From NCBI RefSeq assembly GCF_988243305.1, contig NZ_OZ547136.1: 64,000 nt of DNA. One strand, given 5' to 3'. The notes beneath the pieces were generated by a model that was given only the letters and a program-made list of their open reading frames with translations, made no database searches and was not told the origin of the DNA. A program made the translations under genes and the position numbers. Each line of letters begins with the position of its first letter. Position 1 is the stretch's first letter. Shown in pieces: positions 5,030 to 63,133 of this stretch.

Positions 5030-5210
5030 AGGGTAGGGCGGTAGCGTATTTAATCAGGGAAAGATTACGCAACGCTGCTTTTTTGTATTGAACGATTCGC
5101 ATTTTATGTTTAAAAATTGCGATATTCCTTATTTCCTGAAGCTGTTTTTATTGCTTATACATGATCAAATACTCCTTACATAATTAAGGAGAACAAAATG
5201 GAACTTAATA
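5030..5210 (+). mobile_element. Remnant of H-repeat (ISAs1-family) element left end, ~150-180 bp, truncated right after the transposase start codon
   Basis: Near-identical to the 5' leader of the H-repeat copies at 10255-10440 and 14945-15095 (cagggaaagat...ttatgtttaaaaattg...gatcaaatactccttacataattaaggagaaca-ATG-GAACTTAA), then diverges. Confidence 0.6.
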
Positions 5211-5651: not shown

Positions 5652-7616
5652 ATGTCCTTAAAAGGTCTTCGCTTTACGCTGGAGGTTGACGGCCAGGAGC
5701 CGGACACCTTTGCAGTGGTGAATTTCAGGTTAATCCAGAACCAGTCATATCCGTTTGTGATGAGTGTGGATGTTGCCAGCGACTCTTTTATGCAGACGGC
5801 GGAGATGCTGCTGGAGAAGAAGGCGACACTGACCATCTGGCAGGGCGCAGTGGCGCAGCGTTATGTCACCGGCGTGGTGGCGGGTTTTGGCATGCAGGAG
5901 AATAACGGCTGGCAGATGCGTTATCACCTGCGTATTGAGCCGCCGTTATGGCGGTGCGGGCTGCGGCAGAACTTTCGTATCTTCCAGCAGCAGGATATCC
6001 GGACGATATCGGCCACGTTACTGAACGAGAACGGCGTCACGGAGTGGACGCCGCTGTTTTATGAGGACCATCCGGCGCGGGAGTTCTGTGTCCAGTACGG
6101 AGAGAGCGACCTGGCGTTTCTGTCCCGGCTGTGGGCGGAGGAGGGAATTTTCTTCTTTGAGCGGTTTGCGGCGGACAGTCCGGAGCAGAAGCTGACGCTG
6201 TGCGACGATGTGGCGGGGCTGTCACAGGCGGGGGAGTTTCCGTTTAACCCGGACACATCGGCAGGAGCGGAGACGGAGTGTGTCAGTATGTTCCGTTATG
6301 AGGCGCATGTCCGCCCGTCATCGGTGCAGAGCCAGGATTACACGTTTAAGGTGCCGGACTGGCCGGGGATGTATGAGCAGCAGGGTGAGAACCTGAACGG
6401 ACAGCTGGCGCAGTATGAGATATTTGATTATCCGGGAAGGTACAAGGATGAACAGCACGGCAAGGATTTCACGCTGTACCGGATGGAGAGCCTGCGCAGT
6501 GATGCGGAAAAGGCCACAGGGCAGAGTAATTCACCGAAGCTGTGGCCGGGAACGCGGTTTACGCTGACGGGGCATCCGCAGAAGATGCTGAACCGTGAAT
6601 GGCAGGTGGTACAGAGCATACTGTCAGGAAGCCAGCCGCAGGCGCTGCACGGCAGCCAGGGGAGAGGAACCACGCTGGGCAATCAGTTAGAGGTGATACC
6701 GGCGGACCGGACGTGGCGTCCACGGCTGCAAAGCAAACCGAAGGTGGACGGGCCACAGAGCGCCATTGTCACCGGTCCTGCGGGAGAGGAAATCTTCTGC
6801 GACGAACACGGACGTGTGCGAGTGCAGTTTCACTGGGACAGGTATAACCCGGCAACGGAGGCGAGTTCGTGCTGGGTGAGGGTGTCACAGGCGTGGGCGG
6901 GGCCGGGGTTCGGTAACCTGGCGATACCGCGGGTGGGCCAGGAGGTGATTGTTGATTTCCTGAACGGCGACCCGGACCAGCCGATAATCATGGGACGGAC
7001 ATACCATGAGGACAACCGTTCACCGGGGAGTCTGCCGGGGACGAAGACGCAGATGACGATACGGTCGAAGACCTATAAAGGTAGCGGATTTAACGAGCTG
7101 CGGTTTGAAGACGCCACCAGTAATGAGCAGGTGTATATCCATGCGCAGAAGAACATGGATACGGAGGTGCTCAACGACCGGACAACGGATGTGAAACATG
7201 ACCATACGGAAACCATCGGTAACAACCAGAAGATAACGGTGGTGAAGGGCCAGACGGTGAATGTGGGGAGCAAAAAGGAAGGTGGTCATGACCAGAAAGT
7301 GACAGTGGCGAATGACCAGACCATTACGGTACAAAACGATCAGCGGCTGGATGTTACCCACGATCGTCACAAGGATGTAGGGAACGATCAAATCAGTAAG
7401 ATAATAGGAAAAGATACCGAAGAAGTCGTGAAATCCCAGGATATTAAAGTTGGAGAAGATTACAGCCTGACAGTTACCAACAGCCTCACCATTAAAGTCG
7501 GTGAATGCTTACTGAAAATGAATAAGGACGGTACTATCATTCTCAATGGTAAAAGTATCCAGATTGAAGGAAAAGATAAAATCAATATTTTCGGCGCAGA
7601 TATTGATCTGGATTAA
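5652..7616 (+). CDS. vgrG: T6SS spike protein VgrG with divergent C-terminal tail
   Basis: 654 aa; canonical VgrG N-terminus (GLRFTLEVDG...PPLWRCGLRQNFRIFQ) and gp27/gp5-like body; last ~90 aa and underlying DNA (from ~7380) AT-rich and unlike the canonical VgrG C-terminus preserved at 11572-11916. Confidence 0.9.
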   Translation: MSLKGLRFTLEVDGQEPDTFAVVNFRLIQNQSYPFVMSVDVASDSFMQTAEMLLEKKATLTIWQGAVAQRYVTGVVAGFGMQENNGWQMRYHLRIEPPLWRCGLRQNFRIFQQQDIRTISATLLNENGVTEWTPLFYEDHPAREFCVQYGESDLAFLSRLWAEEGIFFFERFAADSPEQKLTLCDDVAGLSQAGEFPFNPDTSAGAETECVSMFRYEAHVRPSSVQSQDYTFKVPDWPGMYEQQGENLNGQLAQYEIFDYPGRYKDEQHGKDFTLYRMESLRSDAEKATGQSNSPKLWPGTRFTLTGHPQKMLNREWQVVQSILSGSQPQALHGSQGRGTTLGNQLEVIPADRTWRPRLQSKPKVDGPQSAIVTGPAGEEIFCDEHGRVRVQFHWDRYNPATEASSCWVRVSQAWAGPGFGNLAIPRVGQEVIVDFLNGDPDQPIIMGRTYHEDNRSPGSLPGTKTQMTIRSKTYKGSGFNELRFEDATSNEQVYIHAQKNMDTEVLNDRTTDVKHDHTETIGNNQKITVVKGQTVNVGSKKEGGHDQKVTVANDQTITVQNDQRLDVTHDRHKDVGNDQISKIIGKDTEEVVKSQDIKVGEDYSLTVTNSLTIKVGECLLKMNKDGTIILNGKSIQIEGKDKINIFGADIDLD

Positions 7617-7631
7617 TCTGGAGAAATTAAC

Positions 7632-8573
7632 ATGAATATTGAAAATGAAACTGGTTTTCCTCACTTTCAGTTCGAAAAAGTGGGATATTATGGTGAGTTA
7701 TTCACAGTAGTGGTAGTTAATCAGACATTTGATTTTTCATATAGCGGCGGTCTCTGTCTGATTGCGGATGAGCAGCGACTGCCACTGATGACCGACTCCT
7801 GGTACGGCGAACCGGAAAGCAGCAGTCTTAAAACAGCAACCGATTTGGTTTGCAGAAAAGTCAGGGCAGATGTTTTATTAAATGGACACGCATGGCATGC
7901 CACCGGGGAAACCACTCGATGGCAGGCCAGTTTACAGGTGGGTAATCTTCAGCGCCAATTTGATATATGTGGCCCTTGCCAATGGCAATATATATCTAAC
8001 CGCTGGCAACTTAGCGAACCTGAATTAACTGATCGGGTACTGTTACGCCATGAACTGGCGTCAGCCAGTGAATTTAATCCTGTAGGCATTGTTATTCCCT
8101 CCCTGATAACGCTTGGCGATAAATCGCCCTGTCCAGCTCCACAGTTATCTGCCTCACCAGGAGCTATTTGCCGTAGCTGGCCTTCACGATTGCGCTATGC
8201 CAGAGGTTTTACAGAACAGTGGCAAAAGACTGTTCAACCTTTTTATCCAGATGAATTCGATTTTGCATTCATGAATTATTCTCCACCAGAACAACAATAC
8301 GATGGTTATTTAATTGGCAATGAAAAAATTATATTGAACGGCCTGTTACCTTCTAAAATGGAACAAACTTGTTTCCTTCCAGATATTAGACTATTGGCGT
8401 ATTTGTTTTACCGCTCTGATAAAAACGTAGAACTGCGCCCATTGTTGGCTGACACACTGACCATCCACACAGACGATGAGCAACTAACACTACTCTGGCG
8501 CTTAACGCTCCCCGTGGATTCTCTTCCACAACGTATTGTTTTGACGACGGAGCAGAGGGGACCTCATGGCTGA
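7632..8573 (+). CDS. DUF2169-family T6SS adaptor protein
   Basis: 313 aa; N-terminus MNIENETGFPHF...FTVVVVNQTFDF fits the DUF2169 signature; 15 nt after vgrG stop and overlaps the next gene by 8 nt. Confidence 0.75.
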   Translation: MNIENETGFPHFQFEKVGYYGELFTVVVVNQTFDFSYSGGLCLIADEQRLPLMTDSWYGEPESSSLKTATDLVCRKVRADVLLNGHAWHATGETTRWQASLQVGNLQRQFDICGPCQWQYISNRWQLSEPELTDRVLLRHELASASEFNPVGIVIPSLITLGDKSPCPAPQLSASPGAICRSWPSRLRYARGFTEQWQKTVQPFYPDEFDFAFMNYSPPEQQYDGYLIGNEKIILNGLLPSKMEQTCFLPDIRLLAYLFYRSDKNVELRPLLADTLTIHTDDEQLTLLWRLTLPVDSLPQRIVLTTEQRGPHG

Positions 8574-9699
8574 AAATCATATTGGTTGTCGTGAATCGAA
8601 GTACGTTGCGATATGTATTGCGCCTGATGTCTGCAAGGTTGGTGATGCGATAGTGCCGTTTGACAGCTTTCAGAACCTGACACATGAGAAAATTTATATC
8701 AGCAATGTCAGGGCACGGGGCAATCCAATACTGACCGTGGACTGTATTATTGCAGGTACACGAAGTAATGCCGGGAAAGGTGTCAGTTCTGGCACCAGTC
8801 TGGGCAGCGGTGACTGCCGGATACTGACAGGCGTGGATCATATAAAGTGCAAGGGAAAGCCGGTAGCCAGGAATCTTTCGCTGGTTGCCATGAATAATGA
8901 TAATACTGTTGGAAAACTGTATACCCAGACAAACCCGCCAAATCAGATAATACCTGTTAAAGAATCATCGCTTTGGGCCAAGTATCTGGAACTGCAAATA
9001 CAACAGCAAGAGTTTGAGCTTGAGTCCAAAAAGCAAGAAGCAGATGCAATGATAGGATTAGGCAAGGCATTTATTAATGGCTGGTATATGTTGGGTGCAT
9101 TGATTGCCAAAGGTCAGATGCAAAATGACATTGCCCAAATGGAAAGTAATATTGCTCTGGCGAGAGGGTTGGGGATGGATACCCAAATTATGGAGCGGGC
9201 GAATGAGACCAACAGGGAGGTAATGGAAACTATTGATCCTAGAGAGCCATTGTTGAAACCTGCCAATGAAACCCAAGCAATGGCGATGGAGGTTGAGCCA
9301 TGGCTGGAACTTATGACCGGGGTTGGAGCACTGGTGAAAGGTTTGGTCAAGTTTTCAGCGAAGTTTGCAATAAAATCGGTTGGCAGAATGGGGAGGAGCG
9401 GTGCTAAAATTGTGCTGGATGCAAATGGATTGCCTATTCCTGTTCCTCCAAGCGTTGGCGCTGCGGGAAGAGTTCCGAGAGTATTACAAACTGGAGGTAA
9501 TACTCTTGAGGCAAGAACTGCCAGGGAGTTAAATGAATTTTTTGGTAAAAATATTAACAGGAGAGAATGGGGGAAAGCTTTAGAAAAGTTGAAAAAAGAT
9601 TTACGCTTACGAGGTGATCACCATGGTCGAATACTTGATAATGGTGATTATATTGATGACTCAGGAAATATTTTAGGAAACATAGAAGATTATTTATGA
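8566..9699 (+). CDS. DUF4150 (PAAR-like) N-terminal domain fused to unclassified C-terminal toxin domain; predicted T6SS effector
   Basis: 377 aa; N-terminal ~125 aa with PDVCK motif typical of PAAR-like DUF4150; C-terminal ~250 aa not recognisable by eye (ends ...RGDHHGRILDNGDYIDDSGNILGNIEDYL); start overlaps DUF2169 stop (ATGGCTGA). Confidence 0.7.
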   Translation: MAENHIGCRESKYVAICIAPDVCKVGDAIVPFDSFQNLTHEKIYISNVRARGNPILTVDCIIAGTRSNAGKGVSSGTSLGSGDCRILTGVDHIKCKGKPVARNLSLVAMNNDNTVGKLYTQTNPPNQIIPVKESSLWAKYLELQIQQQEFELESKKQEADAMIGLGKAFINGWYMLGALIAKGQMQNDIAQMESNIALARGLGMDTQIMERANETNREVMETIDPREPLLKPANETQAMAMEVEPWLELMTGVGALVKGLVKFSAKFAIKSVGRMGRSGAKIVLDANGLPIPVPPSVGAAGRVPRVLQTGGNTLEARTARELNEFFGKNINRREWGKALEKLKKDLRLRGDHHGRILDNGDYIDDSGNILGNIEDYL

Positions 9700-10175
9700 T
9701 TAAGAATATACAATCAAGGCTTACCCCGATATCTCATGAATATCCAAGTTGTGATGAGTGCTATGCTAGCCTCTTGATTTACACAGGTAATACTCACCCT
9801 AATGAAATAAGTATTCACTTAGAACTTGAGCCAACATCAATTAATATAAAAGGAGATGAAATTATTACTCTATCGGGAAAGAAAAGATATGCAAAAAATT
9901 CATATTGGATGCTCTCGTCAGAAAATCTAGTGAACTCGAAAGATATTCGAGAACATCTGGATTGGCTACTTCACAAACTTGGACCTAAATCATCAAATAT
10001 TGCAAAATTGCAAGCATTAGAAAATATTTCAATGGGTATTGACTGTACCTGGAGATCATTGAATTGGCACGGTGGGCCAACTTTATGGCCTGAGCAGATG
10101 AAAATAATGGCTAATCTTGGATTGGAGTGTTCATTTGATATTTATTTCGTCGGCAATGAAGATGGCAATCTTTAA
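9696..10175 (+). CDS. Candidate cognate immunity protein (cytoplasmic, no signal peptide)
   Basis: 159 aa; start overlaps effector stop (ATGA), suggesting translational coupling; AT-rich; no recognisable family. Confidence 0.5.
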   Translation: MIKNIQSRLTPISHEYPSCDECYASLLIYTGNTHPNEISIHLELEPTSINIKGDEIITLSGKKRYAKNSYWMLSSENLVNSKDIREHLDWLLHKLGPKSSNIAKLQALENISMGIDCTWRSLNWHGGPTLWPEQMKIMANLGLECSFDIYFVGNEDGNL

Positions 10176-10254: not shown

Positions 10255-11571
10255 CAGGGAAAGATCATCAGAAGTACACTTTTTGTACCAGGGAAAGATC
10301 ACGTAACGCTGCTTTTTTGTACTAAATAATTCGCATTTTATGTTTAAAAATTGAGATATTCCTCATTACCTGAAGCTGTTTTTTATTGAGTATACATGAT
10401 CAAATACTCCTTACATAATTAAGGAGAACACAATGGAACTTAAAAAATTGATGGAACATATTTCTATTATCCCCGATTACAGACAAGCCTGGAAAGTGGA
10501 GCATAAATTGTCGGATATTCTACTGTTGACTATTTGTGCCGTTATTTCTGGTGCAGAAGGCTGGGAAGATATAGAGGATTTTGGGGAAACACATCTCGAT
10601 TTTTTAAAACAATACGGTTATTTTGAAAATGGTATTCCTGTTCACGATACCATCGCCAGAGTTGTATCCTGTATCAGTCCTGCAAAATTTCACGAGTGCT
10701 TTATTAACTGGATGCGAGATTGCCATACTTCAGATGATAAAGACGTCATCACAATTGATGGAAAAACGCTCCGGCACTCTTATGACAAGAGTCGCCGCAG
10801 GGGAGCGATTCATGTCATTAGTGCGTTCTCAACAATGCACAGCCTGGTCATCGGACAGATCAAGACGGATGAGAAATCCAATGAGATTACAGCTATCCCA
10901 GAACTTCTTAACATGCTGGATATTAAAGGAAAAATCATCACAACTGATGCGATGGGTTGCCAGAAAGATATTGCAGAGAAGATACAAAAACAGGGAGGTG
11001 ATTATTTATTCGCTGTAAAAGGAAACCAGGGGCGGCTAAATAAAGCCTTCGAGGAAAAATTTCCGCTGAAAGAATTAAATAATCCAGAGCATGACAGTTA
11101 CGCAATTAGTGAAAAGAGTCACGGCAGAGAAGAAATCCGTCTTCACATTGTTTGCGATGTCCCTGATGAACTTATTGATTTCACGTTTGAATGGAAAGGT
11201 CTGAAGAAATTATGCGTGACAGTCTCCTTTCGGTCAATAATAGCAGAACAAAAGAAAGAGCCAGAAATGACGGTCAGATATTATATCAGTTCTGCTGATT
11301 TAACCGCAGAGAAGTTCGCCACAGCAATCCGAAACCACTGGCACGTGGAGAATAAGCTGCACTGGCGTCTGGACGTGGTAATGAATGAAGACGACTGCAA
11401 AATAAGAAGAGGAAATGCCGCAGAATTATTTTCAGGGATACGGCACATCGCTATTAATATTTTAACGAATGATAAGGTATTCAAGGCAGGGTTAAGATGT
11501 AAGATGCGAAAAGCAGCCATGGACAGAAACTACCTGGCGTCAGTCCTTGCTGGGAGCGGGCTTTCGTAATC
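10255..11571 (+). mobile_element. Intact H-repeat (ISAs1-family) element
   Basis: Left-end leader shared with two other copies; contains full 378 aa transposase ORF; right end abuts vgrG fragment. Confidence 0.8.
10433..11569 (+). CDS. H repeat-associated (ISAs1-family) transposase
   Basis: 378 aa [55 protein letters not shown]..., the conserved H-rpt ORF found with Rhs elements. Confidence 0.85.
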
Positions 11572-11916: not shown

Positions 11917-12093
11917 ACCAGAGTGAAGTTCATGTTCTCGTAGCGGGATAATCATTCAGATAAAGATAACGGATGACGGTAGTAATAATAATACAATAAT
12001 ACTGTGATTTTCTGCTTTCTAAGCAGAGATGCTCTGTGAATGAATAATTCATACTCGTTACATGTTTTATAATCTTAATAAGGACTATTGATA

Positions 12094-14166
12094 ATGATAA
12101 TCAGCCCTCCAATATTGCATGCGCATATAGACACTGAAAAAGACTCTGACTGGGTAAACAGAATGATGTCTGTTGATCCAGAGAGAAATTTCCCAATGAA
12201 TAGCGGTCGTTCTTGGCATGGTGGAGTTCATTTGAACGGCAATCTGTCAGAGACTGTTAGGTGTATTGCCGATGGGAAGGTTATTTCAATACGCCAGCCA
12301 GAACCAGCGAAAAATACAGTTCCCCCGTTAAATTATAACGGAGTTACGGATAAAGGCTATGTTCTGATAAAACATGAAACAGAAATCGGTAGTGGAGAAG
12401 AGGGTAAAATCGTCTATTACTCATTATATATGCACCTGAGAAGCATTGACAGTAATGTGCAGCCGGGAAACACGCTATACCGGAAAGAACCGGTTGGTGC
12501 AGCAGGGATGGTGGACGGACAGAACGCCTTTCATTTTCAGATTTTTTGTGATGATGAAAACATTCAGAAAATCACAGGAAGAATATCACCGGAAACAGAC
12601 CTGAATAAAGATGGACGAACTAATGTGGTTTACGGTGATAGTCATTTTTATCTCCCTACCGGAACACCGATTTATGGGGACATGCCGGAAGAAAACTCGC
12701 TTGCGAACAACAGTCCGGTACAAAGAACCAGCGTGCCATTGTATGTCACAATGAGTTTTGATAAAGGCAATTGTACGATGGTGACGCGTCAGCAGCATGA
12801 AGTGCTGAGTGATTCCTATACTGAAGTAGGTTCTCCCTTGATTAATGCTGATGGTAAGGATTATGAATACAATCTCTATTCCTACGCGCTGCAACTCTAT
12901 CCGAAAAGCCCAAGTGCCGGTTATGAGATGCTGCGTTTTGGTCGGGTTGTTAATACAGAATATGAAGAATTAGTCCCGGCGGATGCGCCGCTGTGGAGAA
13001 CAATCAATACGCCACAGGGTAAAGGCGTTGTTAACTTAGGGGCGAGAGATATCAGGGTTTACAGCGACGGTGATTTTCCACACTGGACAGGGTGGAAACT
13101 GGTGAACGATGATGCGGACACCAACAGCCAGTGCAATTCACCAACAATCCTGTGTACAACCCGCAATGACCTAAGTCGGATGATTTGTCATTTTCCGCTA
13201 GAATGGGACAGCGCCACCGTGGAATCACGGTTTGAGTGGCTGAAATCACCCAATGACGTATTGAGTAAGCCGATGACAGAGCCTGACCTGGATTTGCTGA
13301 TAGAACACTGTAAGGCGCTTTGTTTGGTAGAGAATCCGTTACCTGCCAGGCGTGTATGGCATTTTGATCCCAGGCAGTTTATTGCACATTTCAGGAAATG
13401 TGGATGGTTAGGAGAAAATGATATTATAAGTGTGGTAAGACGTTATCAAAATGCTTATCCCATGACATCAGAACTTACAAGACCATTAAGTAAAGACACT
13501 CTAATTGAGCGGATTACTAGCCAAGGACAAAATAGCAGTGGTGAGATGATAAGACCTGCAGGGTTGAAAAATGAACTGTCAAAGTCACTAAGGAAGTACT
13601 TAATTACAACCCCATTGCGGATTGCGCATTATTTCGGTCAGATGGCGAGAGAAACAGGCAGATTTTCGTCTTTTATAGAGAATGGTGATTTGAGTTATTT
13701 TGATATGTATGAGCCAGGAACAGAACAGGGACTTAAGCTTGGAAATAATGTTGTTGGTGATGGTGCAAGATTTAAAGGCAGAGGTACCATACATCTAACT
13801 GGTCGTGAGAATTATAGAAATTATGGAAAGTATAGAAATCCGTCAGATGATGATTTTTTTACTACAGGACCCAATAACCAACTCCCAGTTGAAAATGCCT
13901 ATTTTTCTTGCGATGCCGGGGGATACTTTTGGGCAAGTAAGCAAAAATACATAATGGTAAGCCATCGATTGACACCTAGTGGTAGTTTAGGCGTTAATTA
14001 TTGGGCGGATAAAGGATGTAGTTTGTCACATGCCAGAGAAGTTACACGGCGAATAAACCCAGCAGCAGATGGCTTCGATTTAGTACGTTGGCCAGCATTT
14101 GAGCATTCTTGGTATGTATTGAATGATGAAATAACACCTCCACTTAATTACATAAGGATTGTTTAA
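12094..14166 (+). CDS. Predicted bifunctional peptidoglycan hydrolase effector: N-terminal M23-like peptidase domain, C-terminal GH19/lysozyme-like domain
   Basis: ORF-track start 12088 is TTG; ATG at 12094 has AAGGA RBS ~10 nt upstream (690 aa). N-terminal region aligns by eye to LytM/M23 (HGGVHL...YYSLYMHL...AFHFQIF) with non-canonical metal-ligand positions; C-terminal region carries GH19-like motifs (AHYFGQMARETG...GRGTIHLTGRENY...GGYFWASK). Confidence 0.7.
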   Translation: MIISPPILHAHIDTEKDSDWVNRMMSVDPERNFPMNSGRSWHGGVHLNGNLSETVRCIADGKVISIRQPEPAKNTVPPLNYNGVTDKGYVLIKHETEIGSGEEGKIVYYSLYMHLRSIDSNVQPGNTLYRKEPVGAAGMVDGQNAFHFQIFCDDENIQKITGRISPETDLNKDGRTNVVYGDSHFYLPTGTPIYGDMPEENSLANNSPVQRTSVPLYVTMSFDKGNCTMVTRQQHEVLSDSYTEVGSPLINADGKDYEYNLYSYALQLYPKSPSAGYEMLRFGRVVNTEYEELVPADAPLWRTINTPQGKGVVNLGARDIRVYSDGDFPHWTGWKLVNDDADTNSQCNSPTILCTTRNDLSRMICHFPLEWDSATVESRFEWLKSPNDVLSKPMTEPDLDLLIEHCKALCLVENPLPARRVWHFDPRQFIAHFRKCGWLGENDIISVVRRYQNAYPMTSELTRPLSKDTLIERITSQGQNSSGEMIRPAGLKNELSKSLRKYLITTPLRIAHYFGQMARETGRFSSFIENGDLSYFDMYEPGTEQGLKLGNNVVGDGARFKGRGTIHLTGRENYRNYGKYRNPSDDDFFTTGPNNQLPVENAYFSCDAGGYFWASKQKYIMVSHRLTPSGSLGVNYWADKGCSLSHAREVTRRINPAADGFDLVRWPAFEHSWYVLNDEITPPLNYIRIV

Positions 14167-15713: not shown

Positions 15714-16811
15714 TTATAAAGCCCATCGATTTCGCCCACTTTCTTTCGCCCGGTATAACGCAGCGTCGGCATCTGAAATAATTTGTTCAGCCGTTTTTGC
15801 GGGAGCAGAACAGGTAATCCCCTGACTAACCGTAACGAATGCATTAACAGCAGATGCCTGATGTGGGATAGCTGCCAGTTTAAGTTCTTGCTTCACTCTG
15901 GCTGCTACCGTCTTTGCTTCCGGCAATGTTGCATTAAAAAGTATGATGGCAAACTCTTCGCCACCATAACGGACAACAACATCCTCCGACTGGCGAGTTG
16001 AACGCTGTAGAGCGTCGGCAACTTGTATTAGACAACGATCCCCAGCAGGATGCCCGTAAGTGTCGTTGTAACGTTTAAAAAAATCGACATCCAGCATAAT
16101 AAGAGCAAATGACCCGCCGTTATCCATCGCGTCGTGTAAGATACTGTTCATTGCACGTCGGTTTGCTATCCCAGTTAAAGGATCACGATGTGCTAATGCA
16201 TCAAGGCGATTAATTAACTGGTTGTTATAACTGTTTTGTACCCATGCTTCTTCAAACCAACGTAACAAAATGAGTCGCCCACCATATAGCGCCAGTGAAA
16301 AAATACACCATACAACAGCAAAATGAATATTGATCTGTTGATTAAGCATAAGACTCGCTATTGGAGTGGTGAACCATAAGGGAATGACAAATGCGAGCAA
16401 TGATGGGGTATGGAAATAAAGTGCGACAACGCCACTAAGCATTAATAATACACATAGTGGATAAGCAAACTGCAGCGTCCAGTACGCAATAAAGTGATAA
16501 CTACACCATGACCATAGCAGGCTCAGGGCAACTAATAGCACCTGGATAGGTAATGTTTTTTGCCGAGGGATGAGTAGTAAACCACTGCAAATCAGCAGAA
16601 TACCCGTTGCAGATATATCAATAGAATGTATAAGGCTTTTTTCATTTAACCAGGGTGGAGTAAGGTCATTAAACAGAACACGGCGCAGCAAAATTATCAA
16701 TGCAAAACTGACATTGATAAAAGCAAACCATGGCAAACTAATTGTCATGCCGCGGATAACCATATCGCGGCGTGTTTGCCACGAGTGATGCGTTTTTCTT
16801 CTTTCAGCCAT
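15714..16811 (-). CDS. Membrane-anchored diguanylate cyclase (GGDEF domain)
   Basis: 365 aa; N-terminal multi-TM region; C-terminal GGDEF domain with RYGGEEF active-site motif and conserved DVDFFKRYND...GH.AGD pattern; absent from this position in K-12. Confidence 0.85.
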   Translation of the reverse strand: MAERRKTHHSWQTRRDMVIRGMTISLPWFAFINVSFALIILLRRVLFNDLTPPWLNEKSLIHSIDISATGILLICSGLLLIPRQKTLPIQVLLVALSLLWSWCSYHFIAYWTLQFAYPLCVLLMLSGVVALYFHTPSLLAFVIPLWFTTPIASLMLNQQINIHFAVVWCIFSLALYGGRLILLRWFEEAWVQNSYNNQLINRLDALAHRDPLTGIANRRAMNSILHDAMDNGGSFALIMLDVDFFKRYNDTYGHPAGDRCLIQVADALQRSTRQSEDVVVRYGGEEFAIILFNATLPEAKTVAARVKQELKLAAIPHQASAVNAFVTVSQGITCSAPAKTAEQIISDADAALYRAKESGRNRWAL

Positions 16812-16857: not shown

Positions 16858-18834
16858 TTATGGTGTCACTATATTGAACCAAAATTCAAAATTATCCATA
16901 TAACCTAACAGCTCGTTGAGCTTTTCCGCATTGCCGGTAATTTTGACATCACCTTTGTCCGTGGCTTCTTTCAGCGTCTCTTCTTTCAGTACAATTTTGT
17001 TCAATACATCACGAGATAGAGAGATAGTGGCATCAGCCTCCGAAGCCTCTACACCAGCGGTATGATTGAGAACACCATTTTCAAGCTCTACCTTATAGGT
17101 GCCGCCATCTTCACCAAAATCGAAATTCAACACGGCTTTGGCATCTGCCGCTTTCTCACCATTAATATGGACGGCAAGATAATCAAAGAACATTTCTGGC
17201 GTCATTGCACGCACAGTGTCAGGGCTGGCAGTATTTGGTGTTGGTAATTTTTGTACGCCGTTACGCAATTCCTGTGCACCAGTGAGATAGAAATTACGCC
17301 ACGGCCCAGATTCAGCCTGATAGCCTAACTGCTCAAGCGCATCAGCTTCCAGATTTCTCGCTGCCTGGTTGTTTGGATCCGCAAACACCACCTTACTAAC
17401 AACTTGGGCAACCCAGCGGAAATTACCCTGGTCATAATCCTGTTTGGCTTTCTGTAAAATGGCATCAGCACCGCCCATATACTCGACGAATTTTTTTGCG
17501 CCTTCTTCTGGCGGTAGTTCATCAAGCGTCGCGGGGTTACCATCAAACCAGCCGAGATAAAGCACGTAAGTTGCTTTCACGTCATGACTTACCGAACCGT
17601 AATAGCCGCGATTCGCCCAGGTGTTAGCCAGTGAAGAGGGCAGTTTAAAGTTTGCGGCAATTTCATCACGGGTCATCCCTTGATTAGCCATGCGCAGAGT
17701 TTGATCATTGATGTAACGATACAAATCACGCTGGCTTTTAAGCAGTTTGACCACGTTATCGTTGCCCCAGGTTGGCCAGTGATGTTGAGCGAGAATAATC
17801 TCGGCTTTATCACCCCACAAATTGAGAGCTTCATTAATATATTTTGACCACGGCAGCGGTTGGCGAATTTTAGCCCCACGCAGCGAATAGGTGTTATGAA
17901 GGGTGTGCGTGACATCTTCAGCGGTTTCGATCAGTTTCTTTTCTTCAATAAACCACAGCATTTCAGAAGGCGCTTCAGAACCTGGCGCCATCAGGAAATC
18001 ATAAGTCAACCCGTCAATAGTTTCTTTTTGTCCGGTTTTGGTGATGTAGTTAGTAGGAGCAATCAACGTGACTGTTCCTGCTGAAGTAGTCGTTCCCAGT
18101 CCAGCCCCCACCTGGCCTTTAACATCAGGTTTCAATAAGTTGCCATACATATAACTGGCTCGTCGGCTCATCACATTGCCAGCCATAATATTTTCGGAAA
18201 CGGCTTCCTCCAAAAATCCGGCTGGCGCATAGATTTTAACTTTGCCTGATTTAACGTCAGCTTCATCAATTACGCCACGAACACCACCGTAGTGATCGAC
18301 ATGACTGTGTGTATAGATAACCGCCACTACCGGTTTTTTGCCGCGATTTTTGTAATAGAGATCCATACCCACTTTGGCTGTTTCTGCTGAAACAAGGGGA
18401 TCAACGACGGTAATACCCTCTTTGCCTTCAATGATGGTCATATTTGATAGATCGAGATTGCGAATCTGATAGACACCTTCAGTTACTTCGAATAACCCGC
18501 TGATATTTATCAGTTGCGCCTGACGCCATAAACTCGGATTCACCGTATCAGGGGCTTTATCGCCTTCTTTGATAAAAGCGTAATGTTGTGGATCCCAGAT
18601 AACATTCCCTTGTTCGCCCTTAATCACGTCTTGAGGGATAGGGGCAATAAAACCTTTATGGGCATCAGTAAAGTCAGTGTTATCGGCAAACGGCAACTGG
18701 TTGGAGAGTAAATTGTTTGCTTGTTGCGTGGCTGCGGTGGCGTCTTTAGGAGCTTCCGCCGCGAGGAGAGGTAAAGAACTGGTGGTGAATAATCCCGTTA
18801 TTAGCAGACTTTTAACGATATGATTAAGCTGCAT
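16858..18834 (-). CDS. Secreted alkyl/aryl sulfatase, metallo-beta-lactamase fold (YjcS/SdsA1/BDS1-like)
   Basis: 658 aa; signal peptide MQLNHIVKSLLITGLFTTSSLPLLAAEAP; MBL motif THSHVDHYGG; C-terminal SCP2-like dimerisation region typical of the family; not at this locus in K-12. Confidence 0.8.
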   Translation of the reverse strand: MQLNHIVKSLLITGLFTTSSLPLLAAEAPKDATAATQQANNLLSNQLPFADNTDFTDAHKGFIAPIPQDVIKGEQGNVIWDPQHYAFIKEGDKAPDTVNPSLWRQAQLINISGLFEVTEGVYQIRNLDLSNMTIIEGKEGITVVDPLVSAETAKVGMDLYYKNRGKKPVVAVIYTHSHVDHYGGVRGVIDEADVKSGKVKIYAPAGFLEEAVSENIMAGNVMSRRASYMYGNLLKPDVKGQVGAGLGTTTSAGTVTLIAPTNYITKTGQKETIDGLTYDFLMAPGSEAPSEMLWFIEEKKLIETAEDVTHTLHNTYSLRGAKIRQPLPWSKYINEALNLWGDKAEIILAQHHWPTWGNDNVVKLLKSQRDLYRYINDQTLRMANQGMTRDEIAANFKLPSSLANTWANRGYYGSVSHDVKATYVLYLGWFDGNPATLDELPPEEGAKKFVEYMGGADAILQKAKQDYDQGNFRWVAQVVSKVVFADPNNQAARNLEADALEQLGYQAESGPWRNFYLTGAQELRNGVQKLPTPNTASPDTVRAMTPEMFFDYLAVHINGEKAADAKAVLNFDFGEDGGTYKVELENGVLNHTAGVEASEADATISLSRDVLNKIVLKEETLKEATDKGDVKITGNAEKLNELLGYMDNFEFWFNIVTP

Positions 18835-51263: not shown

Positions 51264-53663
51264 TCAGATTTTCAGCGGTAACACACTGCTCATCCAGCCT
51301 GGAATTTCTTCGGCGGGTAGGGGGCGGGAAAAGAAATATCCCTGAATAACGCGACAGTGGATCTTGCGTAGCATCTCAAATTGCTCTTTGGTTTCGACGC
51401 CTTCCGCCACGACGGTTAAATTAAGGCTTTGCCCAATGCTGGTAATGGCTTCAAGTAAGGCAAGGATGCGTTTTTCGGTCAGACAACGATCGACAAAACT
51501 TTTGTCAATTTTGATTTCCGTTACTGGAAGACTGACTAAGCGGGATAATCCGGAAAAGCCCGTGCCAAAATCATCTACCGATAAACCCACGCCCATATCG
51601 CGCAGGATCTGAATGCGCTTAAAGATTTCGGTATCGTGTTCCATCATCATACTTTCCGTGATTTCCACCGTCAGCTGGTGGCCGTCAATACCCCAGGCGT
51701 GCATTGCATCAGACACCTGATTAGGCAGTTGATTACTGCGAAAGTGCAGCGCCGACAAGTTAACGGATAACGCCGGGATATGAATATTCTGGCTACGCCA
51801 TTCTGCTAACTGACGACAAGCTTCCGCGATGACCCAGCGTCCAATATTTTCGATTTCACCGATCTCTTCTGCGAGAGGAATAAACCGTGAAGGGGGCACA
51901 TGACCATGCAGGGGATCGTGCCAGCGAGCAAGGGCTTCGATGCCGTACAGTTCACCCGTTTCTGCGAAGATTTGTGGCTGGTAAACCAGTTTCAGTTGGT
52001 TATTGCTAATTGCTTCTTTCAGCGCTGCGCCTAAAACCAAACGCTCTTTTACCATTTCGTTCATCGCCGGGCTGAAGACCTGCCAGCCGTTACCGCCATT
52101 CTTGCGAATATAATCCATTGCATTGTGAGCAGTGGAGAGCAGGTAATCGCGGTTTTTACCCACGTCGTAGCTGATGCCAATGCTCAAGGTGAGCGGGAAT
52201 GGTTTATCGTCAATCATTATCGGCTTGCTGACCACATTCCGTAGCTCATCGGCGATTTGGGTTATGTTACTGACGTCGTTTTCCAGGCTCACCAGGACAA
52301 ACTGCGTACCTTCGATACGACAGAGATACTGATCCGGTTTGAGTTTTTCACGAAAGCGATTGACCACTTCCAGCAATGCCTGATCGGCCCACGCATAGCC
52401 AAGGCTATCAATCACATCCTGAATATGGTCAACACCGATGAGATACACCACCGGAGAGACGGCTTTGTCGACCAGGTCATCGAGGTAATTGTGCAGGTTA
52501 TTGCGATTTGGCAGACCGGTCATCGGATCAAATTGGATGAGTTGTTCAATATGCTGACGGCTTTTTTCCTGTTCCAGCGCCAGCGCGGCCATATGCTGGC
52601 TGATATCTGCCACGCGTTCGATAAAGGCGCTGGTTTCTGCTCCTGACGAGGTTTTAATTTGCAGGATCCCCGCAGGCGCACCATCACGCTGACGAATGGT
52701 CGCTGACCAGCTTTGCGCATTTTGAACTTCTGCACCGTGCGAAGATGACGCCCAGTGTATCGGCATCCCGTTGCGCAGCGCGAACAGCGAAACATGCGAT
52801 TCGTTGAGAACAGATTCGATGTTACGACAAATGATTTCCCCCATTTCATGAAATGGCGGGCTGCTGCACATGGCGGCGAGAATATTGCCTTCAAGTTGGC
52901 GGATTTGCCGTTCTTCGGTGATATCCGAGAAAGTCATTACCAGGTTCTGCAGATGCGCGAGCACATCATAGACCGGGCTGATAGAGGCTTTAATCCAGAT
53001 TTTTTCACCGGTGCGCGTCAACAGCAGAAATTCGTCCTGATCGCGGGCGGTTTTCCATAGCAACTGTTGTAAACGAATGCGGTTATCAGCAGGGAATTCT
53101 GGAATGTTAAGGAGTGAATCGGGCTGCATACCGCTGGCTTCGCTAATGCAGTAACCAAACATTTCGGTAAATGCGCGATTGCACTGCACAATATGGCGTT
53201 CCGGATCGAGGACAATCACCGGTCGGTCGAGATGGTCAACGGCAATAATCAATTGTCGGGTCTGTTCTTTTTGCGCCATTTCTACGCTGGCATCCCGTAC
53301 CAGCGCCAGGTAATAAATTTTACCCTCGGCGCTCACTTTCGATAGCGCAAAACGTGTCCAGATTTTACTGCCGTCTTTTTTCTCCAGCTGCAGCTCCCGA
53401 CTCATCCCCTCGACGCGCGCTTTACCGCCTTCACGGTTGTGACGGATGTATTCAGGATGCGCGGGACGCAAATCCCGCGGAATCAGCATATCAATGTTAT
53501 TGCCAATAACTTCTTCACGTTTGTACCCCCAGAGCTTCTCTGCGGCGGGGTTGAAAAACATCACTTCATCATTTTCGTTAATTAACACCGCGCCCATCAT
53601 ATTTTGCTCAAGGGCGGGGAAAAAAATGCCATCGGCGGCATTATCCGCATCGGTTAGCTTCAT
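51264..53663 (-). CDS. dosP: Oxygen-sensing c-di-GMP phosphodiesterase (heme PAS-GGDEF-EAL)
   Basis: 799 aa from MKLTDADNAADGIFF; EAL domain present; alternative ATG 8 codons upstream (53687) abuts dosC stop. Confidence 0.9.
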   Translation of the reverse strand: MKLTDADNAADGIFFPALEQNMMGAVLINENDEVMFFNPAAEKLWGYKREEVIGNNIDMLIPRDLRPAHPEYIRHNREGGKARVEGMSRELQLEKKDGSKIWTRFALSKVSAEGKIYYLALVRDASVEMAQKEQTRQLIIAVDHLDRPVIVLDPERHIVQCNRAFTEMFGYCISEASGMQPDSLLNIPEFPADNRIRLQQLLWKTARDQDEFLLLTRTGEKIWIKASISPVYDVLAHLQNLVMTFSDITEERQIRQLEGNILAAMCSSPPFHEMGEIICRNIESVLNESHVSLFALRNGMPIHWASSSHGAEVQNAQSWSATIRQRDGAPAGILQIKTSSGAETSAFIERVADISQHMAALALEQEKSRQHIEQLIQFDPMTGLPNRNNLHNYLDDLVDKAVSPVVYLIGVDHIQDVIDSLGYAWADQALLEVVNRFREKLKPDQYLCRIEGTQFVLVSLENDVSNITQIADELRNVVSKPIMIDDKPFPLTLSIGISYDVGKNRDYLLSTAHNAMDYIRKNGGNGWQVFSPAMNEMVKERLVLGAALKEAISNNQLKLVYQPQIFAETGELYGIEALARWHDPLHGHVPPSRFIPLAEEIGEIENIGRWVIAEACRQLAEWRSQNIHIPALSVNLSALHFRSNQLPNQVSDAMHAWGIDGHQLTVEITESMMMEHDTEIFKRIQILRDMGVGLSVDDFGTGFSGLSRLVSLPVTEIKIDKSFVDRCLTEKRILALLEAITSIGQSLNLTVVAEGVETKEQFEMLRKIHCRVIQGYFFSRPLPAEEIPGWMSSVLPLKI

Positions 53664-53687
53664 GATTACCTCTGCATCCTGGCGCAT

Positions 53688-56896: not shown

Positions 56897-58432
56897 TTAG
56901 TGTTTCTTGTCATTCATCACAATATAGTGTGGTGAACGTGCACGCGGGTGCAGGAAGAAGTGACCTTTTGGTGCGTTCTGACTGTTGATTGGCTCCAGAG
57001 TGACGCCGGTATTCCCTTTGCCTTTACGATCATGAACAGCATAGAGAATAAAGGGCAGGGCAAGTACCACCAGGAAACTCACGACCAGTAATTCAACATA
57101 CATATCAGTAGAGTCACCCTGGATGTTATCCGGCGGCAGGAAGGAAACAATAAACGCCATAATTGAAGTCAGCAGACCGACAACAGCCACGACCAGTTTC
57201 ACCCCTTTACCACCAGGGATATTAAATGTGCGTTTTAAGTCAGGATGTTTAAGAACCAACACAATGTAGCCAATAAACAGCATGAAATAAGCACACAGAT
57301 AAATCACCACCGTCAGCGCCAGTGCGATCAGGAAGGACATGTTGTTACCGCCACCGGTATTGGTGAGGATGATCAACGCGATAGAAGTAATCACCAGCTG
57401 CGAAATGACCAGCGTTACCGGTACGCCATTTTTGTTCATTTTAGCGAATGCCGCTGGCAGCAGGTTTTTCTGCGCTGTGACATACATCCCGCGAGAAGGA
57501 CCAACAATCCAGGAGGCGATTTCCGCCAGAACACCCAGTAACAGCAGTGCGGAGATCACGCGAACCGTCCACTCAATTTCCGGTGCCACATGGGACATCA
57601 GAACGGTAAAGGTTTGCATTACCCCAGCGGAGAGGTTGATTTCATTACCCGGAATGACCATCGCAATAGACAAACCGCCAACAGAGCTTAAGCAGATTGC
57701 CGCCACCATCAGCAGTAACATAGCCAGTGGATAGTCGCGCCCGGGGTTGCTCATTTCATTGACGTGGGTTGCGGAAGCTTCAACGCCCATATAACTCAAA
57801 ATGAAGGCAACAAATACAACCAGGGTGCCCACTTTAGAGAAGTCTGGGAAGAAGGTCTTCGCATCCATTTCGATAGCAACGGGGGCACCGGAATGCAGAT
57901 AAATAGCCGCTAATGCGATCAAAATAAATGCAGGTAACAGGATACCGGCGAAGAAGCCAACTTTAGCAATTCGCGCCGTGTATTTCGTGCCACCAAACTG
58001 CGTTAATGCCAGCGCCCAAAGAATGATGAGTGCTGCAATAGTTTTGGTAATAGGGTCTTCATTCAGCGCTGGCCATTTCAGGATGTAGGAGAGTGCCCCT
58101 AACACGAAATAGAGCATCGGAATAAAACCAATGGCGATTTGCAGATAGCCAAATGAGATCGCTGCAAATCCCCATCTCGGCCCCAGAGTATTTGATACCC
58201 AGGCGAAGACACCACCTTCTTCCCAGCCGTCGACGGTGGCCATTTCCGCAGCACAAAGTCCCACGGGAATAAACCATAAAATCCCGCCTAATAGCAGGAA
58301 GAAGACTAATGAAAAGCCCGATGTTGCGAAGGTAGGGTATTCATAAACAGCCATTACCATCGATGCCGTTATGGCAAAAAATCCGAGTAATGTGAGCTGC
58401 TTAGCTTTACCTGTCTGTACTGATGTAGCCAT
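56897..58432 (-). CDS. gadC: Glutamate:GABA antiporter
   Basis: 511 aa APC-family transporter downstream of gadB. Confidence 0.9.
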
Positions 58433-58587: not shown

Positions 58588-59988
58588 TCAGGTATGTTTA
58601 AAGCTGTTCTGCTGGGCAATACCCTGCAGTTTCGGGTGATCGCTGAGATATTTCAGGGAGGCTTTGTAGTCTTCCAGCAACAGTTCAGCAAAGTCCATTT
58701 CGAAGCCGCGACGACACATAATGCGCATCACCACGATGTCGGTGGCTTCACCGCCGAGAGTGAAGGCCGGAACCTGCCAGCCGCGCAGACGCAGACGTTC
58801 AGAGAGGTCGTACAGGGTGTATCCCGGATCTTCACCATCTTTCAGTTTGAAGCAAACCGCCGGGATGCCTTCGTCCGGGCGACCGGTACAGATGAACTCA
58901 TACGGCCCCAGTTTGGCGATTTCATCCGCCAGATAAGCGGCAACCTGGTAAGAGGCGTTCTGTACTTTGGTATAGCCTTCACGACCGAGGCGCAGGAATT
59001 CATAGTACTGTGCAATTACCTGACCCGCCGGGCGGGAGAAGTTGATGGCGAAAGTCCCAATCTGACCACCGAGGTAGTCAACGTTGAACACCAGTTCCTG
59101 CGGCAGCGCTTCTTCATCACGCCAGATAACCCAGCCGCAGCCCAGCGGAGCCAGACCGAATTTATGGCCTGAAGCACTGATCGATTTCACACGCGGCAGG
59201 CGGAAGTCCCAGACGATATCCGGGGCGACGAACGGTGCCAGGAAGCCACCGCTGGCGGCGTCGATGTGCATGTCGATGTCGATACCGGTGTCGGCCTGGA
59301 ATTTATCCAGCGCATCGTGCAGCGGTTGCGGGAACTCATAGTTACCGGTGTAGGTCACGCCGAAAGTCGGCACCACGCCGATGGTGTTTTCGTCGCAGGC
59401 TTCAATCATGCGTTTCGGGTCCATAAACAACTGACCGGGGCGCATAGGGATCTCACGCAGCTCCACATCCCAGTAGCGGGCGAATTTATGCCAGCAGATT
59501 TGCACCGGACCGCACACCAGGTTTGGTTTATCCGTTGGTTTGCCTGCAGCTTCCATACGCTTGCGCCAACGCCATTTCATCGCCATCCCGCCGAGCATGC
59601 AGGCCTCGGAAGAACCAATGGTGTTGGTGCCAACGGCCTGACCATTTTTCGGCGCAGGCGCATGCCACAGATCGGCAACCATATTTACGCAACGCAGGTC
59701 GATTGCTGCAGATTGCGGATATTCTTCTTTGTCGATCCAGTTTTTGTTAATGGATAAATCCATCAACTTGTGGACATTTTCGTCGTCCCAGGTCTGGCAG
59801 AAAGTGGCCAGGTTCTGACGAGCGTTGCCATCAAGATATAATTCGTCATTGATAATCTGGAATGCGACATCATCGCGCATTTCGTGCAGCGGAAATCGTT
59901 TTGATTCTGCGATAGTGGAAATAGACTTCGCACCAAAACGTGAATCGAGTAGTTCCGACCTTAAATCCGTTACTTGCTTCTTATCCAT
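58588..59988 (-). CDS. gadB: Glutamate decarboxylase beta
   Basis: 466 aa from [28 protein letters not shown]; PLP-binding region ([10 protein letters not shown]); ORF track has a 23-codon extension. Confidence 0.9.
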
Positions 59989-60067
59989 TTTAAACTCCTT
60001 AAAATGATTGGATCGCATTAAAAAAGTAGGATTTATCGATAAAGTAAGCAAGTGCAAAGGACTCGTG

Positions 60068-60087
60068 TTTAAATAACAAAATCCTAA
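60068..60087 (-). promoter_or_regulatory. GAD box (GadE binding site) upstream of gadB
   Basis: Reverse complement reads TTAGGATTTTGTTATTTAAA, the 20-bp gad box consensus, ~80 nt upstream of the gadB ATG. Confidence 0.7.
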
Positions 60088-60349
60088 TGTTATTTATCGT
60101 GAGATATTATGCGAATAATATTTTATCATTGAAAATCAATACATTATTGAATTCTTGGGTGGTGGCAAGGTGTTTTATGCTGTTATTTTTATGCACTTTC
60201 TACGCCTCCTGAATTATCACGTAAAAATCAGACCTTAAAATATCACTATTAGTACTTGGTTATTATTTTGAACGCATTTATAAAATTATTACATAAAAAT
60301 AGCGAATATTGATAAAATCCCCGCCAACGATGTGTTGACGGGGCTGTTA

Positions 60350-63133
60350 TTATTTTGGCAATAATACTCCGGTATAAGTATTTACCGGATGAGAAAGATA
60401 TTGTTTAACGGTAGTGTTAACATTCTCTACCGTCATTTGTTTCAACAATTGCTCCTGCTCAGTCCATGCTGCAGGATCGTCATATTGAATAAGACTATTT
60501 ACAATGGTGTTCGCTAATTGTTGAACGCTACGCTGTTGGATATCGAGGCTGCGCTGAACGTTTTGCTGGTATTCGTTCAGTTCTTGCTCACTGATCCCTT
60601 TAGCCAGACGTTTAACCATCACTTCATTCGCTAACGTTAACAGTTCATCATGTCGTTCCGGTTGACAAGTAAAAGCCAGCAAATGACTGATATCTTTGGC
60701 CTGAGGATCAACCGAGAGGCGAGAAGAAACGCTGTATGCTCCAGATGCCTGTTCACGAATATTAACGCGTAGATCTTTTGCCAGTGCGACGTTAAAAGCA
60801 TCGAGCGCCATACGCGTCTCCAGATTTACAGGTGTCCGGGAATCATAACGCTTCCACTGTGAAACCTGTGCCACAGGTTCATTTTGTTCTTTTACAGCAA
60901 CCGATGCGTTGTCCGTCGCGCGAGTTAATGGTTTACCTGCGGCTAATGGCGAATCAGAGTGTTTGATTGATCCTAAGTAACGCGTAATTAACGGCAGGAG
61001 TTTGTCTTCTGCGACATTACCGACAATGACAAACGTGATATCCGCTGGAGATGAAAACAACTGGCGATCGGCAGCCAGCGCATCTGCGGCAGTAAACTGT
61101 GCAATCTGATTTTCTTGCAGTAATTTCGTGCGGTCATCAGCATAGCGCGTCTCATACATCTGCTGGGCGAATTTCTCCGCTGGACGCTGGTCGAGCGTTT
61201 TCAACGCCTGAATTTGAGCATTTTGTAGCGATGCCCAAATATTATCGTTAATCGTGCTGTGGGTGATTCGCTGGTTAATCAACTGGAAACCAGGTTCAGG
61301 GTTATTAGTCCGCGTGCTAACAGAGAGCAATGTATTCATGCCACTGACTTTACTGCTCATGGTTACCGAGTTTTCCGCACTCCAGCGTTTCAGGCTGGAA
61401 GAGGAGAGTTCACCAACGCCGCTTCCGCTTACTGCTTTATTTGCCAGCGCGATAAGTGATTTTTGCTGCGCAGGGAAACTTAAATCGCCTTTATTAGATA
61501 CGGCAGTAATTTGTAGTTTTTGCTCTTCACCCGCGGATTTTGCCAGAATAACCCTGGCACCATTGGAAAGTGTTAATGATGTCAGATTCTCAGCCAGCGT
61601 TTCTTTGCTGCTAATTTCCGCCTGTGTGTCAGCGTCTACTGTTAACGATAAATTTCTGCCTGGGAAGCTGTAAGCCGCCAGCTTTTTGTTGGCGTACTCT
61701 TTTTCCAGCGCCAGGATAGCCGCAGGAGACAATGCGTTTTTGGCAGCAACCTCATTGTTTACCATTTGCTCCCAAAATGCATCCTGGTTCTTTCTTAACT
61801 GCTGCCATTTTTCCGCCAGACTTTGCACGGTAATTTGCTGCCACAGACGTTTCGAAAGTTGATATGTCTCTTCCGGCGACAAGAACGGCGTATTATTTAA
61901 TGAGCTGGATGCCAGGCGACTGGTCAGCATACGTAAATCACGTTCAGCTTGCTGATCAACCGCATTTTTCAGCCAGGTGAGGCGGGTAGATTTGACATCA
62001 TCGAGTTCTTCAGCAGAAAAACCATGCTGATCAATAGTTACCAACTCTGCCATTAATGCATTCGCAGCATCCTGCATATTATCGTCTCGTGCATTTACAC
62101 GGAAAAACAGCGACTGATAATCGGGTGCAATTTTAACGCTGCGCGCAGTGCCGCCAGAAATAGTCTTCAACTCGCCCGACTGTATGCGTTCCTGCAGACG
62201 CTGATTGAACAGCTGAACCAACATGCTCCATTCAGCTTGTTCGATAAAGCTTTGCTCATCGCTCACTTGCACCATTGGCAGGCGATAATAGAGTGCGATG
62301 CCGTTCACCCGGTTTTCTTTATCATTAATGATATTAAAGCGCAGGTGGTTTTCGGCTTTTGTCGGCCAGACGCGATTTTCAGCTGCTTTGTTAGCCGGAA
62401 GCTTACTTAAATTGTCCTTTATCAGCGCCAGCGCTTCTTTACTATCGATATCGCCGACCACGATAAAGGTCATATTATTTGGTTGATACCAGCGTTGATA
62501 AAATTGGCGCAATTGTGCCGGTGTGACCGTAGCGACAGTATCCATCAGGCCGATAGGTTCACGGTCTAAATTACGGGTATTAGCCAGCAGGAAAGGGCGG
62601 CGCGCCTGAGAGGTGCGCCATTTCGCATCCTGATGGGCACGCCATTCCTCAGTAATTACGCCGCGTTCAGCGTCTACTTCGAGTTTTTCAAAGGTTGCGG
62701 CATTACTCCATTCACTGAAGATTGCCATCACTTGTTGCAGATTTTGTTTCTGCGTAGTCGGCAAACTCACCTGATACACCGTTTCGTCATAGCTGGTATA
62801 GGCATTAACATCGCGACCAAAGCGCAGACCCATCGACTCAAATGTTTCGATGACTTTATTACCCGGCCATGTTTTTGTGCCGTTAAACATCATATGTTCT
62901 ACAAAATGAGCCACGCCGCGCTCATTGTCTCCTTCCTGCAATGAACCCGTATGAATTTGCAGCCATAAATTTACCTGATCCTTTGGTTGAGCATGCGGAT
63001 AAATCATATATCGCAAGCCATTGTCCAGTTGCCCGGTAATTAACTTTTCATCCTGCGGTAAGGCGGCGGCAATCAGTCGCCCGGGGAGCAACAGAGTTGC
63101 CACTAACGTCAGTAAGAAACAGAGGTTTCTCAT
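60350..63133 (-). CDS. pqqL: Periplasmic M16-family zinc peptidase (pitrilysin-like)
   Basis: 927 aa from MRNLCFLLTLVATLLLPGRLIAA; HFVEH inverted zinc-binding motif; ORF track extends 9 codons upstream. Confidence 0.9.
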   Translation of the reverse strand: MRNLCFLLTLVATLLLPGRLIAAALPQDEKLITGQLDNGLRYMIYPHAQPKDQVNLWLQIHTGSLQEGDNERGVAHFVEHMMFNGTKTWPGNKVIETFESMGLRFGRDVNAYTSYDETVYQVSLPTTQKQNLQQVMAIFSEWSNAATFEKLEVDAERGVITEEWRAHQDAKWRTSQARRPFLLANTRNLDREPIGLMDTVATVTPAQLRQFYQRWYQPNNMTFIVVGDIDSKEALALIKDNLSKLPANKAAENRVWPTKAENHLRFNIINDKENRVNGIALYYRLPMVQVSDEQSFIEQAEWSMLVQLFNQRLQERIQSGELKTISGGTARSVKIAPDYQSLFFRVNARDDNMQDAANALMAELVTIDQHGFSAEELDDVKSTRLTWLKNAVDQQAERDLRMLTSRLASSSLNNTPFLSPEETYQLSKRLWQQITVQSLAEKWQQLRKNQDAFWEQMVNNEVAAKNALSPAAILALEKEYANKKLAAYSFPGRNLSLTVDADTQAEISSKETLAENLTSLTLSNGARVILAKSAGEEQKLQITAVSNKGDLSFPAQQKSLIALANKAVSGSGVGELSSSSLKRWSAENSVTMSSKVSGMNTLLSVSTRTNNPEPGFQLINQRITHSTINDNIWASLQNAQIQALKTLDQRPAEKFAQQMYETRYADDRTKLLQENQIAQFTAADALAADRQLFSSPADITFVIVGNVAEDKLLPLITRYLGSIKHSDSPLAAGKPLTRATDNASVAVKEQNEPVAQVSQWKRYDSRTPVNLETRMALDAFNVALAKDLRVNIREQASGAYSVSSRLSVDPQAKDISHLLAFTCQPERHDELLTLANEVMVKRLAKGISEQELNEYQQNVQRSLDIQQRSVQQLANTIVNSLIQYDDPAAWTEQEQLLKQMTVENVNTTVKQYLSHPVNTYTGVLLPK

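Follow-up and report, generated by a model that had tools for sequence, protein, structure and literature searches.

An unchanged GAD box upstream of gadBC in an Escherichia coli strain

The gadBC locus

The window—the whole stretch of DNA that was analysed, 64,000 nucleotides in length—carries intact genes for a glutamate decarboxylase (gadB) and a glutamate/GABA antiporter (gadC) on its minus strand (Table 1). The gadB frame runs from the ATG at 59988 to 58588 through 466 codons without an internal stop, and the score given for it refers to TIGR01788, the glutamate decarboxylase equivalog, whose cut-off is 380.4. The gene upstream of gadB is pqqL, with the end of its stop codon at 60350. Seven nucleotides after this stop codon begins a terminator-like hairpin that is followed by ATTTTAT; it is strong and should insulate the gadBC promoter from pqqL read-through.

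Over 501 bp around the site described below, the window is 100% identical to the complete genome of E. coli 2012C-4221, in which RefSeq places gadB between pqqL and gadC in the order yddA-yddB-pqqL-gadB-gadC-digH-dosC. By the annotation of this matching genome, none of gadE, rcsB, gadX and gadW falls within the 64-kb window.

Table 1 Features of the gadBC locus and of the variable region of the window (positions are those of the window)
Feature	Position	Strand	Sequence or basis
VgrG	5652–7616		
DUF2169	7632–8573		
PAAR-like toxin protein	8566–9699		
DUF4279	9696–10175		
ISAs1/H-repeat-type transposase	10433–11569		
692-aa protein	12088–14166		weak, sub-threshold M23 peptidase match
MASE5-GGDEF protein	15714–16811	minus	
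Alkyl sulfatase	16858–18834	minus	
gadC, glutamate/GABA antiporter	56897–58432	minus	511 aa, intact, cotranscribed with gadB; TIGR00910, 1025 bits, full-length 1–511
gadB, glutamate decarboxylase	58588–59988	minus	466 aa, intact; TIGR01788, 692.7 bits; RefSeq annotation of matching genome
gadB start codon	59988	minus	ATG
Shine-Dalgarno	59995–60000	minus	AAGGAG
Transcription start (putative)	60015	minus	by homology to K-12; 27 nt before ATG
-10 hexamer	60023–60028	minus	TACTTT; 17-bp spacer after -35; weak match to TATAAT
RcsB box, low-affinity repressing RcsB site	60027–60038	minus	CGATAAATCCTA; abuts -10 and overlaps it by two bases; probable borders
17-bp spacer between -35 and -10	60045–60029	minus	ends in RcsB-box sequence CGATAAATCC
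-35 hexamer of gadBC promoter	60046–60051	minus	TTGCTT; 16 bp after GAD box; identical to K-12
GAD box	60068–60087	minus	TTAGGATTTTGTTATTTAAA; exact 20/20 match to published box
Region homologous to two K-12 GadX ChIP-exo sites (-184, -225)	60179–60260	minus	predicted; contains AAGGTCTGATTTTTACGTGAT at 60216–60236
Terminator-like hairpin and T-run between pqqL and gadBC promoter	60319–60343	minus	10-bp stem, 7 G-C pairs

Sequence and position of the GAD box

On the plus strand, positions 60068–60087 read TTTAAATAACAAAATCCTAA. The reverse complement, TTAGGATTTTGTTATTTAAA, agrees at all 20 positions (60087..60068 on the minus strand) with the 20-bp GAD box consensus string published in PMC4918353, TTAGGAttTTgTTATTTAAa—including both G residues of TTAGGA. 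A pattern search of both strands with up to three mismatches allowed returned this as the single site in the 64-kb window, with zero mismatches, while the chance expectation at the same tolerance amounts to 0.02 matches per window (100 dinucleotide-preserving shuffles, two of which contained any match). A preliminary description of this DNA had claimed an exact 20-bp match to the GAD consensus, correctly placed upstream of the gadB start, and it is borne out in sequence, strand, position and target gene. The alignment with the gadA and gadB promoters that it had suggested as a check finds the box identical to both K-12 sites.

Downstream of the box, and on its own strand, follow the glutamate decarboxylase gene gadB and then gadC. 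Counted from the gadB ATG, the box occupies -99 to -80 (80–99 nt upstream), and it is separated from the -35 hexamer TTGCTT by 16 bp (60067..60052, minus strand). The elements of the gadBC promoter were placed by homology; a consensus sigma-70 scan of 59900–60400 missed the published gadB promoter owing to its weak -10 hexamer, TACTTT. This weakness fits an activator-dependent promoter.

The position of the transcription start follows from K-12, where the GadE ChIP-exo peak at gadBC (1570144–1570175) lies at -62.5 from the start (PMC4918353, Seo et al. 2015), which gives a distance of 27 nt from the start to the ATG. Relative to this transferred start, the box reaches from -72 to -53 with its centre at -62.5, and the centre of the K-12 peak would coincide with the box centre if a 1975-bp offset between the K-12 reference versions is assumed. 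For gadA and gadB, a distance of 16 bp between the GAD box and the -35 hexamer has been described (PMC2887963, Castanie-Cornet et al. 2010). All three points of the GAD-box definition in that study can be checked in sequence and are found at gadB here, this distance being one of them; the box is centred about 63 bp before the start, as transferred from K-12.

A second regulatory element, the RcsB box, has been located directly upstream of the -10 hexamer, and its gadB version is conserved except for a C in place of a G at the left end (PMC2887963). This difference in the first base—G at gadA, C at gadB—is visible in our gadA/gadB alignment.

Comparison with the gadB and gadA promoters of K-12

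Compared with the gadBC promoter of K-12 MG1655, the window shows zero differences from -94 to the ATG. Box, -35, RcsB box, -10 and Shine-Dalgarno as well as their spacing to the ATG are hence the same, and the gene order pqqL-gadB-gadC is common to both. Further upstream, from -95 to -297, the two align without indels and differ by 14 substitutions, of which five lie in the GadX -184 site of K-12.

The K-12 gadA promoter shares the 20-mer at 20 of 20 positions and its spacing to the -35 hexamer, and the -10 region has GATAAATCCTACTTTTTT in common. It differs from gadB in the 16-bp spacer downstream of the box, and upstream of the box the sequences are unrelated. The genomic setting differs too: gadA lies in the acid fitness island, and gadB next to pqqL. 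Because the 16-bp spacer and all upstream sequence differ between gadA and gadB, the identity of the box is, as judged from this alignment, an island, with no longer run of shared sequence around it.

Related, too, are the sites of RcsB-auxiliary-regulator heterodimers such as the RcsA/RcsB box. The GAD box has a left half, TTAGGA..., that is similar to an RcsB half-site, and in both cases RcsB binds with a LuxR-type partner. The partner is RcsA there and GadE at the GAD box, which is asymmetric and for which the assignment of half-sites is unsettled in the literature.

Binding and activation

With a probability of roughly 95%, we regard 60068–60087 as the gadBC GAD box of an E. coli chromosome, at which the RcsB/GadE heterodimer activates transcription from upstream. 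Sequence, uniqueness in the window, geometry, identity to K-12 and conservation come from the present analysis, and binding and activation from the literature on K-12, where the box DNA is identical. By analogy, the same proteins would bind the box in this strain.

Within that literature, footprinting and mutagenesis concern the gadA promoter, and the support for gadB consists of ChIP-exo and the effect of a knockout, all in K-12. At gadA, RcsB and GadE together protect -50 to -76 from DNase I, whereas MBP-GadE alone protects nothing, and the gel-shift complex contains both RcsB and GadE with an apparent Kd of ~10 nM (PMC2887963). A G-to-C change of the conserved G of TTAGGA in the gadA box (M1) abolishes binding as well as GadE-dependent activation of gadA-lacZ; the text of the paper leaves open which of the two G residues of TTAGGA was changed (PMC2887963). 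At gadBC, the GadE ChIP-exo peak has a modest signal-to-noise ratio of 2.78, and deletion of gadE at pH 5.5 reduces expression, with log2 values of -6.44 for gadB and -5.85 for gadC (PMC4918353).

That GadE would bind and use the box alone, as a homodimer, is distinctly unlikely. Earlier reports of GadE binding (refs 8, 21 and 22 in PMC2887963) and the K-12 GadE ChIP-exo peak on the box (PMC4918353) speak for such a mode, as does the tendency of GadE toward homodimers in solution (PMC2887963). However, ChIP cannot separate a GadE homodimer from the heterodimer, and MBP-GadE prepared from rcs mutants gave, on its own, neither a footprint nor a shift even at 10–20 µM. It is RcsB and GadE together that bound with the ~10 nM affinity, and the earlier results with GadE alone were attributed to contamination by RcsB (PMC2887963). 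The preliminary description had called the site GadE-binding: the site itself stands, and GadE as the sole binder belongs to an older description that gave way to the RcsB/GadE heterodimer demonstrated at gadA (PMC2887963).

As an activator site for the RcsB/GadE heterodimer, the 20-bp box would act in cis, with its centre some 63 bp before the transcription start. It would be occupied, under acid or in stationary phase, by GadE, a LuxR-family regulator, together with the response regulator RcsB. The heterodimer at this upstream position is expected to activate the weak promoter with its -35 TTGCTT and -10 TACTTT, which in turn would allow for high expression of both the decarboxylase GadB and the antiporter GadC.

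Conservation of the box

The 60-bp core centred on the box has a match in 5393 of 5426 complete E. coli genomes and is 100% identical in 3157 records. In contrast, the 242 bp upstream of this core reach an identity of 99% or more in only 68 records of the same search, which marks the upstream allele as rare; most records show 90–95% identity here. In an alignment of nine sequences—the window, K-12 and seven divergent E. coli strains, a small sample, and hence no census, picked because their 60-bp core had 1–3 mismatches or was only partly covered—the box is invariant and both flanks vary. The substitutions of the strains set in directly 3' of the box and, on the 5' side, from 7 bases outside of it; none falls inside.

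Beyond E. coli, the exact 20-mer turned up at 11 loci when 100,044 species genomes (298 Gb) were scanned once. Eight of these are in Escherichia (E. coli, E. albertii, E. whittamii and Escherichia sp. E1V33), and at all eight the 20-mer lies 79–81 nt before a start codon of gadA type (MDQK.., or MEQK.. in E. albertii) or of gadB type (MDKK..), with strongly diverged flanks. As the scan finds exact copies only, the invariance among the eight loci is given by construction; what it shows is where the box occurs. The other three loci, in unrelated Lentisphaeria and Bacteroidales MAGs, have no gad gene nearby and are chance matches, about as expected in 298 Gb. An exact match to the 20-mer alone is hence not diagnostic outside Escherichia.

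One strain deserves separate mention. The gadB locus of E. coli SCU-308 (NZ_CP053281.1, 2486726–2487065; aligned to window positions 59980–60257) is of gadB type through the GAD box and turns gadA-type directly 3' of it, in the spacer, the 5' UTR and the MDQ.. start. The pattern suggests a tract of gene conversion from gadA to gadB, with its upstream junction at the box.

Gene conversion does therefore reach this promoter, and one might ask whether conversion between the duplicated gad loci, instead of a regulatory need, is the only reason for the identity of the 20-mer at gadA and gadB. We consider this very improbable and reject it because the identity is confined to the box: the 16-bp spacer downstream and everything upstream differ between gadA and gadB. 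At gadB promoters, strain substitutions occur on either side of the box and none inside, and at gadA the mutation of a conserved G abolishes activation (PMC2887963).

That the box is a functionless, A+T-rich chance match in an A+T-rich intergenic region (70% A+T)—as the three chance copies of the 20-mer in unrelated MAGs among 298 Gb might suggest—has next to no probability and is excluded by the single exact match against a chance expectation for the window of 0.02 with as many as three mismatches allowed, by the alignment to K-12 with the same register relative to -35, -10 and ATG, and by the conservation of the box among strains and across Escherichia.

The upstream region and GadX/GadW

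All 14 substitutions that distinguish the window from K-12 MG1655 upstream of -95 are located within 60110–60312. The region includes the putative counterparts of two K-12 GadX ChIP-exo sites (Table 1), whose coordinates were transferred from Supplementary Table 3 of PMC4918353 via a gap-free alignment to K-12; five of the substitutions fall into the -184 site and one into the -225 site. The published GadX/GadW 20-mer, ATGTCTGATTTTTATATTAT, has no match here at up to three mismatches, and thus the GadX sites are placed via the K-12 ChIP-exo coordinates only. The looser GadX/GadW core TCTGATTTTTA is all that is present, at 60216–60236. It is a rather doubtful possibility that this upstream allele alters the response of gadBC to GadX/GadW and H-NS, with the GadE/RcsB input left untouched.

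The remainder of the window

Despite the 100% identity over 501 bp, the window is not 2012C-4221 itself. This candidate was rejected since the identity over 20986–64000 (~43 kb) amounts to ~98.9% and the stretch from 4.1 to 19.4 kb has a different content; 2012C-4221, although the nearest complete genome, is hence a relative only. A further difference concerns dosP, which is open at full length here (807-codon ORF, 51264–53687, minus strand) and annotated by RefSeq as frameshifted in 2012C-4221, otherwise the closest genome.

The segment 4081–19371 is not collinear with 2012C-4221. It holds the genes from VgrG to the alkyl sulfatase listed in Table 1 and resembles a variable island of type VI secretion effectors. 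Three stretches of it, each 160–550 bp long (5049–5208, 10289–10830 and 15486–14937), all match one and the same ~550-bp segment of 2012C-4221.

Significance

The GAD box of this strain is an ordinary, already described textbook feature, in its usual place and unchanged. In K-12, the gadBC box was reportedly described by Castanie-Cornet and Foster in 2001 and by Ma and co-workers in 2003; box and spacing have been known since 2001. The statement of the preliminary description that the site is consistent with intact acid-resistance regulation holds for the cis elements, gadB and gadC, the trans-acting genes being located outside the window.

Beyond annotation, the importance of this site is small. 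gadBC is the main glutamate-dependent acid-resistance operon, and with its cis-regulatory core unchanged in this E. coli strain, it is expected to respond to GadE/RcsB as in K-12.
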